Counted from the stretch's first letter, positions 1,130 to 28,538 are shown. The stretch is DNA of 64,000 nt from Alphaproteobacteria bacterium (GCA_022825195.1 JAJDYL010000218.1:25029-89028), one strand, 5' to 3'. A program made the numbers and translations. Notes: a model not told the origin generated them from the letters alone.

Positions 1130-2413
1130 TCAGGCCGCCATGGCCCGGTTTCGGTAGCTCAGGATCCGTTCTTCCATCTCATGCCTGAAATGGCGGATCA
1201 GTCCCTGGATCGGCCAGGCGGAGCCGTCCCCATGCGCGCAGATGGTGTGCCCCTCGATTTCCTTCGACACGTCGAGCAGCATGTCGATCTCCTCGACACG
1301 GGCGCGTCCCGACGCCATCCGTTCCATCACGCGCATCATCCAGCCGGTTCCTTCGCGGCAAGGCGTGCATTGCCCGCAACTCTCGTGCGCATAGAACCGG
1401 GCAAGACGCGCGATGGCGCGCACGACATCCGTGGAGCGGTCCATCACGATCACCGCGGCCGTGCCCAGCCCGCTCTGCACATCCCGGAGCGCATCGAAGT
1501 CCATCAACACCTCATCGCAGATGCTCTTCGGCAGGATCGGGGTGGAGGAACCTCCGGGAATGACGGCCTTGAGATTGTCCCAGCCGCCCCGCACACCGCC
1601 GGCGTGCTTCTCGATGAGTTCCTTCATCGGAATGCTCATCGCCTCTTCCACGTTGCAGGGGCGGTTGACGTGGCCGGAAATGCAGAACACCTTGGTGCCG
1701 GTGTTGTTGTTGCGCCCGAAACCGGAGAACCATGCCGCGCCACGGCGTAGTATGGATGGCGCTACGGCGATAGTCTCGACATTGTTCACGGTCGTCGGAC
1801 AACCGTATAGGCCGGCCATCGCCGGAAACGGCGGCTTCAGGCGCGGCTGGCCCTTCTTGCCTTCAAGGCTCTCGATCAGGGCCGTCTCCTCGCCGCAGAT
1901 ATAGGCGCCGGCTCCGCGGTGAAGGAATACGTCGCAGTCGACGCCGGAACCGCAGGCGTTCCTGCCGATCAGTCCCGCTTCATAGGCTTCGTCGATTGCA
2001 TGCTGCAGGTGGCGCGCCTCGTTGAAGAACTCGCCTCGTACATAGATGTAGGCGGCTCCGGCGCCTATTGCCGCACAAGCGAGAAGGCAGCCCTCGATCA
2101 ATTTGTGCGGGTCCCAGCGCATCATGTCGCGGTCCTTGCAGGTGCCAGGCTCACCCTCGTCCGCATTGACCACCAGATAGGCAGGGCGACCGTCGCTCTC
2201 CTTCGGCATGAACGACCATTTGAGGCCGGTCGGAAAGCCAGCTCCGCCCCGCCCCCGCAAACCCGATGCCTTGATCTCCTCGACAAGCCACTCGCGGCCC
2301 CTGGCGATCAACTCGGCCGTCCCGTCCCAATCGCCCCGCGCGCGGGCGCCCTTCAGGGTCCAGTCATACTCGCCGTAAAGATTCGTGAAGATGCGGTCCC
2401 GGTCGGTCAGCAT
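1130..2413 (-). CDS. nuoF: NADH-quinone oxidoreductase subunit F
   Basis: [50 protein letters not shown] motifs. Confidence 0.97.
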
Positions 2414-3003
2414 CGGGCGTCACTCTCCAGCAGTGTGGTCTTGCCGCCCTCCGGCGCGGAATTCAACCGCTCTGCCTGAGTACCGGTTGTCGGCGGCCGG
2501 CCCTCCGCCAGCGCGTCGAGCAGGGCCGCCGTCCGGTCGGCATCGAGGTCTTCATAATAGTCGTCATTGATCTGCAGGACCGGCGCGTTGACGCACGCTC
2601 CAAGGCACTCGACCTCCAGCAGCGTAAAGAGGCCGTTCTCGTCCGTCTCGCCGAAATCCAAGCCTGTTTTTTCCTTGCAGGCCCGGACTACTTCGTCGGA
2701 CCCGCGCAGCCAGCATGGTGTGGTCGTGCATATGTGCAGCCGGTATTTCCCCACGGGTTCGCGGTAATACATCGTGTAGAAGCTGACGACTTCCCAGACG
2801 CGGATCGCCGGCAGGCCCAGAAAATCCGCCACGTACTCGATCACCGCGGGAGACGTCCAACCGAGCTGGCGTTGCGCCAGGTCCAGCAGCGGCATGACAG
2901 CGCTTTGCTGCCGGCCGTCCGGATATTTTGCGAGAATGGCGTTCGCTGCTTTCAGATTGTCGGCCGTAAAGGCAAAGATGCCGGCTGCGCCGCGCCCGTT
3001 CAT
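2407..3003 (-). CDS. nuoE: NADH-quinone oxidoreductase subunit E
   Basis: CTTTPC...[10 protein letters not shown] 2Fe-2S motif; position in operon. Confidence 0.96.
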
Positions 3004-4178
3004 CGATCAATCTCTCCGAACACGATGTCCATGGCGCCCAGAATCGCAACGCTGTCGGCCAGCATATGGCCGCGTGACAGGAAGTCCATGGCAGCCAGAT
3101 GCGCGAAACCCGGCGCCCGGATCTTGCACCGGTAAGGCTTGTTGGTGCCATCCGACACCAGGTAGACGCCGAACTCGCCTTTAGGCGCTTCGACCGCCGT
3201 ATAGGTCTCGCCGGGCGGCACCCTGTATCCCTCGGTGTAGAGCTTGAAGTGATGGATGAGCGCCTCCATCGATTGCTTCATCTCGCCTCGTTTCGGCGGA
3301 GCCACCTTGCTGGTCTCCGTTACCACCGGCCCTTCGGGCATGTCGTGCACACACTGGTCGATGATGCGCAGCGACTGGCGTACCTCCTCAACCCGGACCA
3401 GGTAGCGGTCGTAGCAGTCGCCGTTCTTGCCGATCGGAATGTCAAAGTCCATCCGGTCATACACGTCGTATGGCTGCGCTTTGCGCAAATCCCACGGTAG
3501 CCCGGAGGCGCGCAGCATCGGACCCGAAAAACCCCAGTCGAGCGCGTCTTCCACCGACACGCGGCCAATGTCCACGGTTCGCTGTTTGAAGATGCGGTTC
3601 TCGTTGAGCAGCGTTTCCATATCGGTGATGAACTTCGGAAATGCCGCGGCCCATTCCGCTATGTCGTCGAGCATGCCGTCCGGGAGGTCCTGATGGACGC
3701 CGCCCGGCCGGAAATAGGCAGCGTGGAGCCGGGCGCCGCTCGCACGCTCATAAAATTCCATCAGTAGCTCACGCTGCTCGAAGCCCCATAGCATCGGCGT
3801 CATCGCGCCGACATCCAAGGCGAACGCCGTCAGGTTCAGCAAGTGGTTCAGGATGCGCGAGATCTCGGAGAACAGGACCCGGATATACTGGCCGCGCTCC
3901 GGCACCTCGATACCGAGAAGCCTCTCGGTTGCAAGCGCAAAGGCATGCTCCTGGTTCATCGGGGCGACATAGTCGAGGCGATCGAAATACGGCACCGCCT
4001 GAAGATAGGTCTTGTGTTCGATGAGCTTTTCGGTTCCGCGATGAAGGAGACCGATATGAGGGTCTATGCGGTCCACGACCTCGCCATCGAGCTCCATGAC
4101 CATGCGCAGGACACCGTGCGCCGCGGGATGCTGCGGGCCGAAGTTCAGCGTGTAGTTCCTGATCTGGGCTTCGGCCAT
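3000..4178 (-). CDS. nuoD: NADH-quinone oxidoreductase subunit D
   Basis: [29 protein letters not shown]; start placed at MAEAQ (4178). Confidence 0.97.
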
Positions 4179-4771
4179 CAGGCGCCCTCCGCCTTTTCGT
4201 CGCCAGGCAGCGGCCCCTCCCAAGGGCTCAGATAGTCGAAGGACCGGAACTCCTGCGTCAGGGAAACCGGCTCATAGACAACGCGCTTCTGCTCGTCGTC
4301 GTAGCGGACCTCGACATATCCCGTCAGCGGAAAATCCTTACGCATCGGATAGCCTTCGAACCCGTAGTCGGTCAGCAGGCGGCGCAGGTCGGGATGGTCC
4401 GAGAAGAAGATGCCGTAAAGGTCCCACGCTTCGCGCTCGAACCAGGCCGCCGAACTGAATAGCCCCGACACCGACGGCACGGGTGTATCTTCGTCTGTCG
4501 AGGTCTTGACCCGGACACGAAGGTTGTGACGGTGGCTCAGCAGGTTGTAGACGACTTCGAACCGCTCCGGATGTTCCGGATAATCGACGCCGCACAGATC
4601 CATCAGGCACTTGAAGCGACAGTTGGCGTCATCACGCAGGAAGGTCAGCACCTCAAGCAGCCCGTCTCGCCCCACTCTCAGCACCAATTCCGATACCGTC
4701 GGCTCAAACGACACCTTTTCGCCGATCATCGCCTCGACATGCTCGGCGAGCTCTTTCAGGGCTTCGTCCAT
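4178..4771 (-). CDS. nuoC: NADH-quinone oxidoreductase subunit C
   Basis: [35 protein letters not shown]. Confidence 0.96.
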
Positions 4772-23604: not shown

Positions 23605-24978
23605 TCAAATGCCCGGAGGGGTCCCCAGGCGGCGGGAGGCCGGGCCGATCACGGTTTCGACGGCAAGGCCGATGGAGATCAGCCGCTCGTCCGTGCCGCG
23701 CGGGGCGAGGAGTTGCAGGCCGACCGGCATGCCGGCGCCGTCGAGGCCGGCCGGAATCGTGAGGCCGCAAAGCTCCAGCAGGTTGCCCGGCATGGTGTTG
23801 CGGAGCGAAGCCATGTTGTGCGTCCGGTAGCCTTCCCCTTCGGCTGCATGCTGCAGGAGCGGCGCGGTAATCGGCGTCGTCGGCCCGACGATTGCGTCGA
23901 TGCCGGCGAGCCGGGCGTTCGCCGCCGCCGCGGCGCGGGCGATGCGCATCTTGCGGCCGAGATAGTCCGTCGAGGTCAGGGTCCCGAATGCCTCGAAGCG
24001 GCCACGGACATTCGGGTCCAGCGTCGCCTTGAACGCGGGCAATTCGTTTTCGATGAAGGCGACGAATTCGGGCACCGCCAGCCCGCCTTCCCCGAAGACC
24101 GCCCTGGCGTCGGCCATTTCCGGCAGGTCGAAGGATTGCACCGTCGCGCCCCGCCCTTCCAGCTCGGCCAGGGCGGCGCGCACGGTCTCCGCCACGCCCG
24201 GACCGCAATCCTCGAAAAGGCTCTCGATCACGCCGATCCTGAGGCCGGCCGGGTCCGCCGGCTCGGGCGGCGTCCGGCACACCGGGTCTATCGCCGCAAA
24301 GGCGAGAGCCGCGTCCTCGACCGAGCGGGTCAGCACGCCGGCGGTATCGAGCGACGGGCTGAGCGGCACGATGCCTTCGAGCGACCAGCGCCCGTAGCTC
24401 GTCTTGAGGCCGACCGTGCCGGTGAAGCTCGCCGGAACGCGCACCGAACCGGCCGTGTCGGAGCCGAGCGCCACCACCGCCGTGCCCTCCAGCAGCGACA
24501 CCCCGGCGCCGGCGCTGGAGCCGCCCGGCACCCGGTGCGACTCCCCGCCCCAGGGGTTGCGCGGCGTGCCCCAGTGGGGGTTCGAGCCGACGCCGCCGAA
24601 GGCGAATTCGACCGTGTGCGTCTTGCCGGTGACGACGGCGAGCCCGTTCCGGACCGCAGCGACCACCGGCCCCTCCGCCTCCCAGGACGCGGGCAGCGGC
24701 TTCGGGGCGCCGGCATGGGTGGGCGCGCCCGCAAGCCCGAACAGGTCCTTCACCGACACCGGCAGGCCCTGCAGCGGCCCGAAGTCGAGGCCCTGCGCGA
24801 ACGCGGTATCGGCCAGCTCCGCCGCGCGGGCGGCATAGTCCGGCATCCAGAGTTTGTAGGCGCCGAGGGCCTCGCTGCGGTTGGCAAGCGCCTGCTCCAG
24901 CAGGTCGTGCGCCGTCACCCGGCCGGCTCGCAGCGCCTGGCCCAGTTCGGCGATGGTGGCGGAGGACAGTTCGATCAT
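23605..24978 (-). CDS. Amidase (amidase-signature family)
   Basis: PVSVKDL, GKT, PGGSSAG, GSDTAGSVRVPA; start placed at MIELSS (24978). Confidence 0.9.
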   Translation of the reverse strand: MIELSSATIAELGQALRAGRVTAHDLLEQALANRSEALGAYKLWMPDYAARAAELADTAFAQGLDFGPLQGLPVSVKDLFGLAGAPTHAGAPKPLPASWEAEGPVVAAVRNGLAVVTGKTHTVEFAFGGVGSNPHWGTPRNPWGGESHRVPGGSSAGAGVSLLEGTAVVALGSDTAGSVRVPASFTGTVGLKTSYGRWSLEGIVPLSPSLDTAGVLTRSVEDAALAFAAIDPVCRTPPEPADPAGLRIGVIESLFEDCGPGVAETVRAALAELEGRGATVQSFDLPEMADARAVFGEGGLAVPEFVAFIENELPAFKATLDPNVRGRFEAFGTLTSTDYLGRKMRIARAAAAANARLAGIDAIVGPTTPITAPLLQHAAEGEGYRTHNMASLRNTMPGNLLELCGLTIPAGLDGAGMPVGLQLLAPRGTDERLISIGLAVETVIGPASRRLGTPPGI

Positions 24979-25104
24979 CGCGCTCCGACTGTAGCCCGTA
25001 CTTCTCGCCGGTGTCATGGGCCTGCGCCCCGCCGCCGGGCCGGAGGGCAGGGAAAGACCCGCCGCTCGCCGCGTCTCCGGCCCAGGGGGGCCACTCCAGC
25101 GAGG

Positions 25105-25286
25105 TGTCATGAATTGTCATGTTTTGTCATGCAGCCCTGCAGAAATGTCATGGAATGTCACGGTCCGCTGCATCCCCTCCCGCGCATAATGCGCGCGCGT
25201 TTCGCGGCGGCACGCGGGCGCCCGCGTGCGCGAGGCAGCGTGAGGGACCCCCGCCGGAATGTCATGGAATGTCATGTTGTGTCATG
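25105..25286. repeat. Array of TGTCA(T/C)G heptamers in 10-bp phase (three clusters, 8 copies)
   Basis: Copies start at 25105, 25115, 25125; 25146, 25156; 25260, 25270, 25280. Confidence 0.85.
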
Positions 25287-25835
25287 TTTTCCTCGTGGAG
25301 GCCCGGCGCGGGGCCTTCTGCCGGCGCTGCCGGGTTGCGGGTCATGGGAGATGGCCCCCCCGCCTTCGCAGGGGCGATGAGAGGGGGCGGCGGCCTGTGC
25401 GGCCAGGGCCTTTTTCTTCGCCTTCCTCTCTTTCCTCTCCCTCCTCCTTTTCCTCTCCTTTCTCTCCTTCTCCTCCCTCTTCCTCCTGCGCTCTTCGCGG
25501 CGGTCCTCGCGGCGGTTCAGCCGTTCGAACCATGCGTGGAACTCGGGGGTTTGCCGGCTGCCGGTCCAGACCTCGCCGAGATATTCGTATTCCTCCTCTT
25601 CGGGTTCCGGTTCGGGCAGATGTCCGGCGCTCCAGTCGAGGACGGCGAGGAGCTGTCGCAGATGGGCGAGCCGGGCGCGTCCGGCGCGGTGGTATTCGGC
25701 GCGGTCGCGGTCGTCCTGCGGCGGCGGTCCGGCGCCGATGTCCTCGGCACAGGCTGCGGCGAGGGCTTCGGCGGCCGGGGCGAGGCGCTCCAGCAGCATG
25801 GCCGCCAGTTCGGGGCGGGGATCGGTTGCGGTCAT
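25272..25835 (-). CDS. Orphan protein (187 aa): helical N-domain, acidic linker, E/R/K-rich tail
   Basis: Strong RBS AAGGAGGAGG 5 nt before ATG 25835; protein-like N-terminus; stop codon lies inside the TGTCATG array. Confidence 0.65.
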   Translation of the reverse strand: MTATDPRPELAAMLLERLAPAAEALAAACAEDIGAGPPPQDDRDRAEYHRAGRARLAHLRQLLAVLDWSAGHLPEPEPEEEEYEYLGEVWTGSRQTPEFHAWFERLNRREDRREERRRKREEKERKERKRRRERKERKAKKKALAAQAAAPSHRPCEGGGAISHDPQPGSAGRRPRAGPPRGKHDTT

Positions 25836-26274
25836 TCGTGCCTCCTCCTTCGGGGCCAGGGCGGGACGGGGTGTCCCTGTTTCGCGCGTAATGCGTGCGG
25901 GCCTGCGTGCGCGGGCGGGCGTATCGCGGCGGCGCGGTTCGTGCGCCTGATTGCCCGCGCGCGCGTGCGTGCAGCCGGGCAGAGGGCGCACCCCTCCCGT
26001 CCGCTCGCGCCGGGGGTTTCTCGGCCCCAGCCATGCTTTCTGCAGAAAAGCGGAACGGCGGCCCCGGAAGCCGCCTTTCTCTGGTGCTTATTCTACACCA
26101 TTCCTCGGAAAATCAAGCCATTTCGGGAACAAAAAATGATAATTCCGGGTAATTTTCTCACAATCCGTTGAATCGGCGGGACAATCTCAGGCTTTCGACA
26201 CGCCGCATGGCGGGCGGGGCGACGATATGGGCCGCAATCTTCCCGTGAGTCCGAAGTCGATGCCGCTGTCATGA

Positions 26275-28538
<2,264 letters not shown>

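Follow-up and report, generated by a model that had tools for sequence, protein, structure and literature searches.

The DNA analysed here is a stretch of 64,000 nucleotides (nt) from an alphaproteobacterium (GCA_022825195.1, JAJDYL010000218.1:25029-89028). This stretch, referred to below as the window (G000:C112:25029-89028, with positions counted from its first letter), contains one intact copy of a family of small gene cassettes, each with a putative promoter of its own, a leader, one gene, and a tail of CATGACA heptamers. These cassettes probably represent a new, lineage-specific family of one-way selfish elements of ~1 kb that are either mobile or spread by recombination. The homology shared by the family spans positions ~25100 to ~26190; this is the segment singled out as a self-contained cassette in an earlier note on this DNA, although it runs slightly past the limits of 25105 and 26141 given there. 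The host genus belongs to sponge-associated Alphaproteobacteria, and the genus set used in this work includes 17 genomes, namely G000, the genome carrying the window (4.41 Mb in 235 contigs, 68.5% G+C), and 16 congeners.

A search with the 1.2-kb region yielded 117 matches in its own genome, and the merged hits of the family make up 114 loci on 98 of the 235 contigs, in agreement with the dispersed family postulated in the earlier note. Counted by part as high-scoring segment pairs (HSPs), the leader side (25800-26190) is represented ~65-80 times, the interval 25170-25290 ~70 times, and the body of the open reading frame (ORF) 4-10 times. Searched by itself, the leader yields 99 HSPs (E ≤ 1e-10), 50 of them extending to the ribosome-binding site (RBS) and 36 being full length. 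Both the leader and the repeat end, for which the earlier note had proposed separate searches, are multicopy. Among the 470 ends of contigs, 75 have a match no more than 1 kb away, so this family is a main cause of the fragmented G000 assembly. In the public metagenome run X1, the summed contig depth over the leader is 3800-4200 versus ~40 in the flanks, and in four sponge-metagenome runs the leader core has summed depths of 1550-4200 versus ~5-60 in most flank bins, these values being totals over all contigs and organisms and not copy numbers. The best holders among the public runs are those labelled sponge metagenomes. These runs are represented by short Logan contigs, and the joints listed in them derive from other copies; since none of the contigs spans a whole cassette, an empty-site allele would not be visible in those runs. 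The amidase-side junction of the window copy is present in contigs of runs X2 and X3 (24759-25180, with 1-2 differences).

Within the genus, the leader is present in 13 of the 16 other genomes, and it was found in none of the 24 genomes of other genera that were searched. Triple-heptamer arrays are absent from three genomes (G001, G003, and G013) and number 7-129 in the other 14, with the reversed-pattern control giving 0 everywhere; the ORF profile finds 0, 0, and one 102-residue fragment in the same three genomes and 1-24 matches in the others. When one genome per species was scanned for in-register triplets of the heptamer, the matches listed came almost solely from metagenome bins labelled “Alphaproteobacteria” or “Rhodospirillaceae,” several of them from sponges, with a few stray single matches outside those bins.

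The order of parts in the family, read in the ORF direction, is an AT-rich block, a hairpin, a GC-rich leader of ~250 nt, AAGGAGG followed by ATGACC..., the cargo, and 2-4 CATGACA heptamers at a 10-nt period, within which the cargo ORF always terminates. In keeping with a pattern that the earlier note had named as support for a new element family, this conserved frame holds variable cargo: the 187-residue orphan protein family of the window copy, a Terminase_2-domain protein, a short ORF, or none. Most G000 copies have ~15-25 ORF codons fused to 1-3 tandem “U” units of ~200 bp, each made up of another copy of the leader's 3' part (GCCGCCGCGAAACGC ... GCATTATGCGCG ... AAGGAAG-N5-ATG) and an array of its own at the end. 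Such ORF-less forms with 1-3 tandem ~200-bp units make up the majority, outnumbering the genes by ~10:1. The closed genome G012 has at least 12 intact copies, which are compact (~970 bp), have sharp ends and mostly unique flanks, and are 79-98.5% identical; this range, obtained for eleven copies, points to a spread of ages. Short cargo includes a 41-residue ORF in G005, G006, and G007 and ORFs of ~15-50 residues in G011 and on contig C233 of G000; a cassette without an ORF is found in G008. The second large cargo is a protein of ~305-325 residues with an N-terminal Terminase_2 domain (in G012, Pfam E 5.2e-13, 50.3 bits versus a cut-off of 26.1) and an acidic tail. Its gene also ends in a heptamer array, as in L146:552-1526 (G012) and in C143:70436-71400 and C26:4228-5100 (G000). 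There are 13-16 matches to this protein in G000, and it is encoded in 13 of the 17 genomes, the exceptions being the three cassette-free genomes and G008. Its relatives in the protein collection number more than 347, and the label “terminase small subunit,” borne by the few that have a name, is probably misleading for this family in these metagenome-assembled genomes. No homology was detected between the two cargo families (hhalign probability 0.1).

Sites that are filled in one genome and empty in another can be seen at two positions; empty sites in sister genomes are what the note had named as support for an element family. One of them is the window copy's own position: in G003 and G013, ~120 bp separate the aminotransferase upstream block from a divergent gene (MDLPTMGVG...), and in G016, G010, G007, G008, and G012 a cassette in the window orientation, with other cargo, lies between the two genes. 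The other is the site of the G012 copy L173, which is empty in contig C101 of G000 (~17 bp between the flank matches and 52 bp between the anchors, versus ~1.05 kb in G012) and holds a cassette of another subfamily in G005, G006, G007, and G016. Junctions of the copies lie in GC-rich, partly repetitive DNA. The cassettes also mark rearrangement points, and copies are often located at synteny breakpoints. In G000, the ancestral neighbour gene of the window site now sits on C233, where another cassette precedes it, and what follows the window cassette is the amidase, which adjoins the aminotransferase in none of the 10 relatives compared. Such swapping of neighbours between the window site and C233 is the pattern expected from recombination between two cassettes. 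The flanks of copies L159, L174, and L170 map to different places in relatives, and for L156, L171, and L175 just one flank is found there. In G006, the array of the cassette found at the L173 site (L182, G006:C90:22300-24750) is interrupted by an insertion sequence of ~1.5 kb, which has inverted ends and, on the opposite strand, a transposase-like ORF.

The cargo ORF of the window copy (minus strand, 25272..25835, ATG at 25835, stop at 25272-25274) encodes 187 residues behind GGAGGAGG, confirming the orphan ORF with a strong RBS described in the earlier note. Homologues, the absence of which would have counted against the note's reading, do exist: 119 were found at E ≤ 1e-3, all of them unnamed or “hypothetical” and without a Pfam domain, and those with a stated source come from metagenome-assembled Alphaproteobacteria. 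An exhaustive profile search of 1.84 billion representatives returned 100 proteins, all of the same family or fragments of it. The N-terminal ~110 residues are conserved across the family, and a “G..TPEFxAW.ER” module occurs in two copies in most aligned homologues and in one copy in the closest relatives of the window ORF. Nearly all homologues end in ..HD(K/I/T)(T/P/S) because the stop codon sits in the array. There are ~10 ORF copies in G000, several of them interrupted by contig ends. Among eight paralogues compared over their first 69 codons, the ratio of nonsynonymous to synonymous polymorphism (pN/pS) is 0.05-0.50 in 27 of the 28 pairs and 1.1 in the remaining one. The homologues and these codon comparisons show the window ORF to be a real gene under purifying selection.

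The predicted structure of the ORF product (AlphaFold, mean predicted local distance difference test score of 83) consists of helices 7-33 and 42-71, a beta-hairpin (81-92), and a helix 97-149, i.e., an N-terminal helical hairpin and a beta-hairpin followed by a long charged helix with the TPEFxAW motif and a tail rich in Lys, Arg, and Glu. Sequence and structure comparisons assigned no function: the best Pfam match (E 0.0088) is under every cut-off, Foldseek found no match in the PDB at E ≤ 0.001, the best VIA-align hit (Z 6.6) is on generic helices and uninformative, the protein atlas gave 0.86 with unnamed clusters only, NCBIfam had nothing usable, and PADLOC gave 0 matches for four family members. 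In PHROGs, the N-terminal hairpin weakly but consistently matched phrog_31793 (E 1.8e-4 to 0.012, four of four members), a family without an assigned function. Tyrosine-recombinase motifs were considered and dismissed by eye, the protein being too small and all-helical, and a Terminase_2 (PF03592) identity was rejected for lack of a match, the profile being unrelated to the Terminase_2-type cargo. The Lys/Arg/Glu-rich tail, which is absent from most homologues, is encoded by a polypyrimidine tract with a 9-nt period (25412-25483, five overlapping copies of 36 nt); several assembly contigs stop shortly before this part of the ORF. At C129:1-1829 and C132:7188-7900 of G000, an ORF copy with an internal deletion directly precedes a P4-type integrase-like gene, and a tRNA gene lies directly downstream of another copy.

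The array of TGTCATG words (CATGACA on the ORF strand) that was reported to contain the ORF stop codon proved to be significant. The window has 13 of them versus 4.76 ± 2.11 in shuffled sequences, none of the 100 shuffles reaching 13, and the TGA of the ORF falls within the heptamer at 25270-25276. Seven of the 13, all on the plus strand, start at 25105, 25115, 25125, 25146, 25260, 25270, and 25280; neighbours within a run are 10 bp apart, and a TGTCACG follows at 25156. They form two arrays, both read on the minus strand: the first (25260..25286, three heptamers at 10-nt spacing) contains the ORF stop, and the second (25105..25162, four exact heptamers and one CGTGACA) forms the 3' end of the cassette, as judged from the sequence, the shuffles, and the family coverage. 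The 143 runs of exact heptamers in G000 have sharp borders and comprise 65 doublets, 71 triplets, and 7 quadruplets, and in 42 of the 43 pairs of neighbouring arrays the two have the same orientation. With three heptamers spaced in this way (10-nt period), TGA (and ATG) occurs in every one of the three frames, so any reading frame that enters ends there; about half of the G000 arrays have at least three heptamers and thus satisfy this condition. All seven bases are strictly conserved, which suggests that the heptamer is bound by a protein. The 10-bp period would set the heptamers on one face of the helix, and the candidate binder could be the cargo protein or a recombinase. Array orientation in G000 shows no association with local GC skew (n=63, Fisher p=0.44). 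In the closed 4.59-Mb chromosome G011:C1, which has 34 triple-array matches in forward and 64 in reverse orientation, the GC skew in twenty sampled 20-kb windows flips sign at least five times, which fits many inversions, or noise.

At its 5' end, the cassette starts with a conserved AT-rich block (26118..26190, minus strand; ATTRTCC..TTCAACGG..TTGTGAGAAAATT..ATCATTTTTTGTTCC), in which the 36 full-length copies agree at most positions; family coverage drops at ~26190. The family version of the AT-rich region, ..TTCAACGG..TTGTGAGAAAATT..ATTTTTTGTTCC..CTTGAYT-15 nt-TAGAAT, extends into the promoter-like pair of the earlier note (26091..26117, minus strand), of which both boxes, TTGATT (26112-26117) and TAGAAT (26091-26096), are present. 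Their spacer, however, is 15 nt, and a promoter scan limited to 16-18 nt does not report them, listing instead TTGTGA-16-TATCAT at 26163-26136 on the same strand. A TTGNNN-15-TAnnAT layout is found in 9 of the 11 subfamily representatives, the other two having no match to the regular expression used, and from this recurrence TTGATT-15-TAGAAT may be expected to act as the promoter from which the cassettes would be transcribed. A hairpin, GGCGGCTTCCGGGGCCGCC (26051..26075, minus strand), lies 3' of the putative start. In the window's subfamily it is followed by a T-run and is therefore terminator-like on both strands. All nine placeable representatives have a hairpin in this position, with differing stem sequences, and the 62-nt hairpin windows fold no better than shuffled ones (z -0.1 to -1.8).

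The GC-rich leader (25851..26050, minus strand) is the most abundant part of the family. Its near-invariant core, GCAATCAGGCGCACGAACCGCGCCGCCGCG (25925..25954, minus strand), has most columns invariant or at least 90% conserved, and 30 aligned leaders, drawn from 8 genomes and no fewer than 4 subfamilies, have in common GCAATCA.GCG..C.AACCGCGCCG..GC and a few other blocks. None of the 25 base pairs predicted for these leaders by RNAalifold is compensatory, the consensus structure is weak (-19.8 kcal/mol), copies inside G000 show no compensatory changes, and Rfam 15, with its models of riboswitches, small RNAs, group II introns, retrons, and other families, has nothing near threshold (best 23.6 bits versus a gathering score of 88). 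Conservation without compensatory changes points to constraint on the sequence itself, which fits a role as DNA or in recognition by protein better than a folded RNA. The leader is followed by the RBS, AAGGAGGAGGC (25840..25850, minus strand), which is located 5 nt ahead of the ATG and kept in the 50 copies that reach that point.

Between the two arrays lies a truncated U unit (25163..25259, minus strand), which contains GCCGCCGCGAAACGC and the palindrome CGCGCATTATGCGCG. As a paralogue of the 3' part of the leader, this unit accounts for the two pairs of similarly oriented flank motifs that the earlier note had correctly placed on both sides of the ORF, D12 (25181-25197 and 25883-25899, 17 nt, 88% match) and D8 (25193-25214 and 25915-25936, 22 nt, 86% match). 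A dif/Xer-like site in the palindrome CGCGCATAATGCGCG was dismissed by eye for lack of a 6-bp central spacer. Beyond the 5' end of the cassette, repeat matches and the congener comparison identify other short repeat modules followed by ancestral intergenic DNA (26199..26325); homology to the region upstream of the aminotransferase in congeners begins at ~26325. These modules, including ...GGGTCCCAATCCGGCAACA, a hairpin GTCATGCCCGGACTTGTTCCGGGCATGAC, and ...GCCGCGAAGCGGCGTATCGAAAGC, adjoin the cassette at 26199-26290 of the window and are found upstream of many G000 leaders; G000 holds a network of mosaic repeats. The word GCGAAGC, within ...GCCGCGAAGCGGCGTATCGAAAGC, is a very stable mini-hairpin. 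Next to the other end of the cassette is the amidase gene on the minus strand (Pfam Amidase, E 3e-73), and the aminotransferase gene on the plus strand lies on the far side of the repeat modules (Pfam E 9e-84). There is no terminator between the window cassette and the amidase gene. The longest amidase ORF begins at 25110 (24979-25110), i.e., within the heptamer array; judging from the Pfam match and the sequence, translation probably starts at the ATG at 24978, with the array ending 127 nt upstream of it.

In the interpretation favoured here, the cassettes would be selfish DNA inserted into intergenic sites, with the conserved leader and array serving as portable homology for recombination between copies. 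Such recombination would swap or delete cargo, duplicate the inner unit in tandem, and rearrange the chromosome. Several observations weigh against this interpretation. The cassettes and their immediate surroundings contain no recognized transposase or recombinase, nor do the two cargo proteins look like one. Comparison of filled and empty sites revealed short similar words on either side of some copies, from which no consistent target duplication could be fixed; no copies are identical; and sites filled with different cargo could be explained by a single old insertion and subsequent conversion, so that current mobility does not follow from them. Because many 5' flanks in G000 are other repeat modules, the cassette ends are fuzzy in that genome. 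The 65 of 143 arrays with just two exact heptamers mean that all-frame stops are not universal, and G011, with 98 triple arrays and a single broken ORF copy, indicates that the ORF protein is not needed to keep the arrays. The lack of covariation in the leader counts on the same side.

Some of these features would suit a domesticated regulatory repeat, that is, a promoter or insulator module kept by the host in the manner of BIME/REP, ERIC, or Correia sequences and spread by recombination only, whose roles would be to control how adjacent genes are transcribed and to block read-through translation. The leader core and promoter block are strongly conserved as sequence, there is no transposase, the family is an old one with orthologous copies at some sites, and the copies are intergenic and often located upstream of co-directional genes with no terminator in between, as with the amidase and the C233 gene. 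We nevertheless find this explanation rather unlikely: 5 of 11 copies face a co-directional gene and 6 a convergent one, so neighbours are not consistently served; array counts range from 0 to 129 among congeners, three healthy genomes having none; and purifying selection on the cargo is unexpected for a purely regulatory repeat. Another alternative is an ordinary gene family, in which a small gene together with its promoter and 3' region would have been multiplied by segmental duplication and homogenised by gene conversion, the ORF-less copies being decaying pseudogenes. The ~10 ORF copies and ~13 Terminase_2-type matches with their own conserved 5' and 3' regions, as well as the divergence of the copies (79-98.5% identity), are compatible with such a history, which is all the same distinctly improbable, given that two unrelated protein families and several short ORFs under the same leader and array fit a cassette frame better, that the ~1-kb G012 copies with their sharp ends and mostly unique flanks are not duplicated segments, and that the ORF-less units exceed the genes ~10:1 and form tandem units.

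A frame with exchangeable contents recalls integrons, in which case the arrays would be recombination sites and the units would be inserted, excised, and stacked head to tail behind a promoter by a site-specific recombinase encoded elsewhere. Variable ORFs that each end in the same 3' site, tandem same-orientation units behind one promoter, and different cargo at the same chromosomal site across species could all be accommodated by such a system. Still, it is the least probable of the readings weighed here, as there are 114 dispersed loci rather than one array beside an integrase, each full cassette appears to have its own promoter, the 3' site consists of short direct repeats and not of an attC-type imperfect palindrome, and no candidate recombinase was identified (intI was not searched for genome-wide). 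A low probability is likewise assigned to a new class of autonomous elements in which the TPEF-motif and Terminase_2 cargo proteins would act on the CATGACA arrays, either as a recombinase or transposition protein or as a pac-like specificity factor. If this held, the cassettes would together form a dispersed system by which sponge symbionts transfer genes and reshuffle their genomes, and in the pac-like variant ~100 chromosomal sites would be packaging starts for a phage or a gene-transfer agent.

If the one-way selfish cassette interpretation is correct, the family would be a kind of bacterial repeat outside the current classes: a one-gene cassette driven by its own promoter, the cargo of which can be exchanged and the tail of which consists of direct repeats, with no recognizable transposase and yet abundant enough to break short-read assemblies and to reshape chromosomes. 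It would offer a handle on how uncultured sponge symbionts rearrange, and perhaps exchange, DNA, two multicopy protein families open to functional study, and a small expression unit of natural origin, whose defined 7-bp repeat allows a binding partner to be searched for directly.

No description of such an element was found in a surface-level search of the literature on sponge-symbiont, CATGACA, or promoter-bearing repeats and on multicopy terminase genes. The earlier statement that no named element type explains the layout is upheld by comparison with miniature inverted-repeat transposable elements (MITEs), REP/RAYT, integrons, Rfam, and type III toxin-antitoxin systems. The last of these, exemplified by ToxIN, have ~36-nt repeats upstream of the toxin gene; here, the repeats are 7-mers with a 10-nt period and lie downstream of the ORF. 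Integron cassettes resemble the present family in having a variable ORF with a common 3' site, one orientation, and tandem stacking, and differ in that the present cassettes are dispersed over 114 loci, have their own promoter-like block and long leader, and carry 7-bp direct repeats instead of attC; no integrase was found adjacent to the cassettes, intI not having been searched for genome-wide. In several pac phages, the pac site is located within or beside terS, which is reminiscent of the sister cargo with its Terminase_2 domain and gene ending in a repeat array, although here there is no large terminase or phage context, the copies are dispersed and number ~100, and the window cargo is unrelated. 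Short repeats also act as operators of small plasmid regulators, such as the omega heptads of pSM19035. Another is ArtA of the plasmid pSK41, which binds ACATGACATG/CATGACA at -35 boxes, a proven site (PMC2777438). The cassette heptamer is the same 7-bp word, and in such regulator systems short repeats are bound by small DNA-binding proteins. This similarity is a precedent only, showing that a word of this kind can serve as a binding site: pSK41 belongs to an unrelated host (Staphylococcus), no fold like the ribbon-helix-helix of ArtA was recognized in the ORF model, and the cassette repeats lie after the gene and not over a promoter.

Like the cassettes, MITEs and other nonautonomous derivatives of insertion sequences are small and intergenic, reach high copy numbers, are present in some relatives and absent from others, and comprise many internally deleted copies next to a few “full” ones. 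The cassettes, however, have no terminal inverted repeats: the heptamers in the window are on one strand, and no inverted repeat joins the ends. No transposase or integrase is present in the segment, as the earlier note had stated, its ORF staying below the Pfam cut-offs, and the longest cassettes carry an orphan ORF of 187-240 residues or a Terminase_2-type ORF without a match to any transposase family. In addition, each cassette is predicted to be a promoter-driven expression unit. A search for the RAYT/Y1 (HUH) transposase (PF01797), which REP/BIME and the IS200/IS605-derived PATE would call for, gave 0 matches in G000 and was positive in 1 of the 17 genus genomes, compared with 6 of 14 known genomes in the control. 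Mosaic intergenic repeats include BIME/REP in enterobacteria, RIME in rhizobia, BOX in pneumococci, and Correia in Neisseria. Like the cassettes, these are modular, have variable internal tandem units and, in some cases, promoter activity, are present in ~100 copies per genome, and play a role in rearrangements; the cassettes differ in being 5-10 times longer, in lacking hairpins or inverted repeats at their ends, and in carrying protein-coding cargo.

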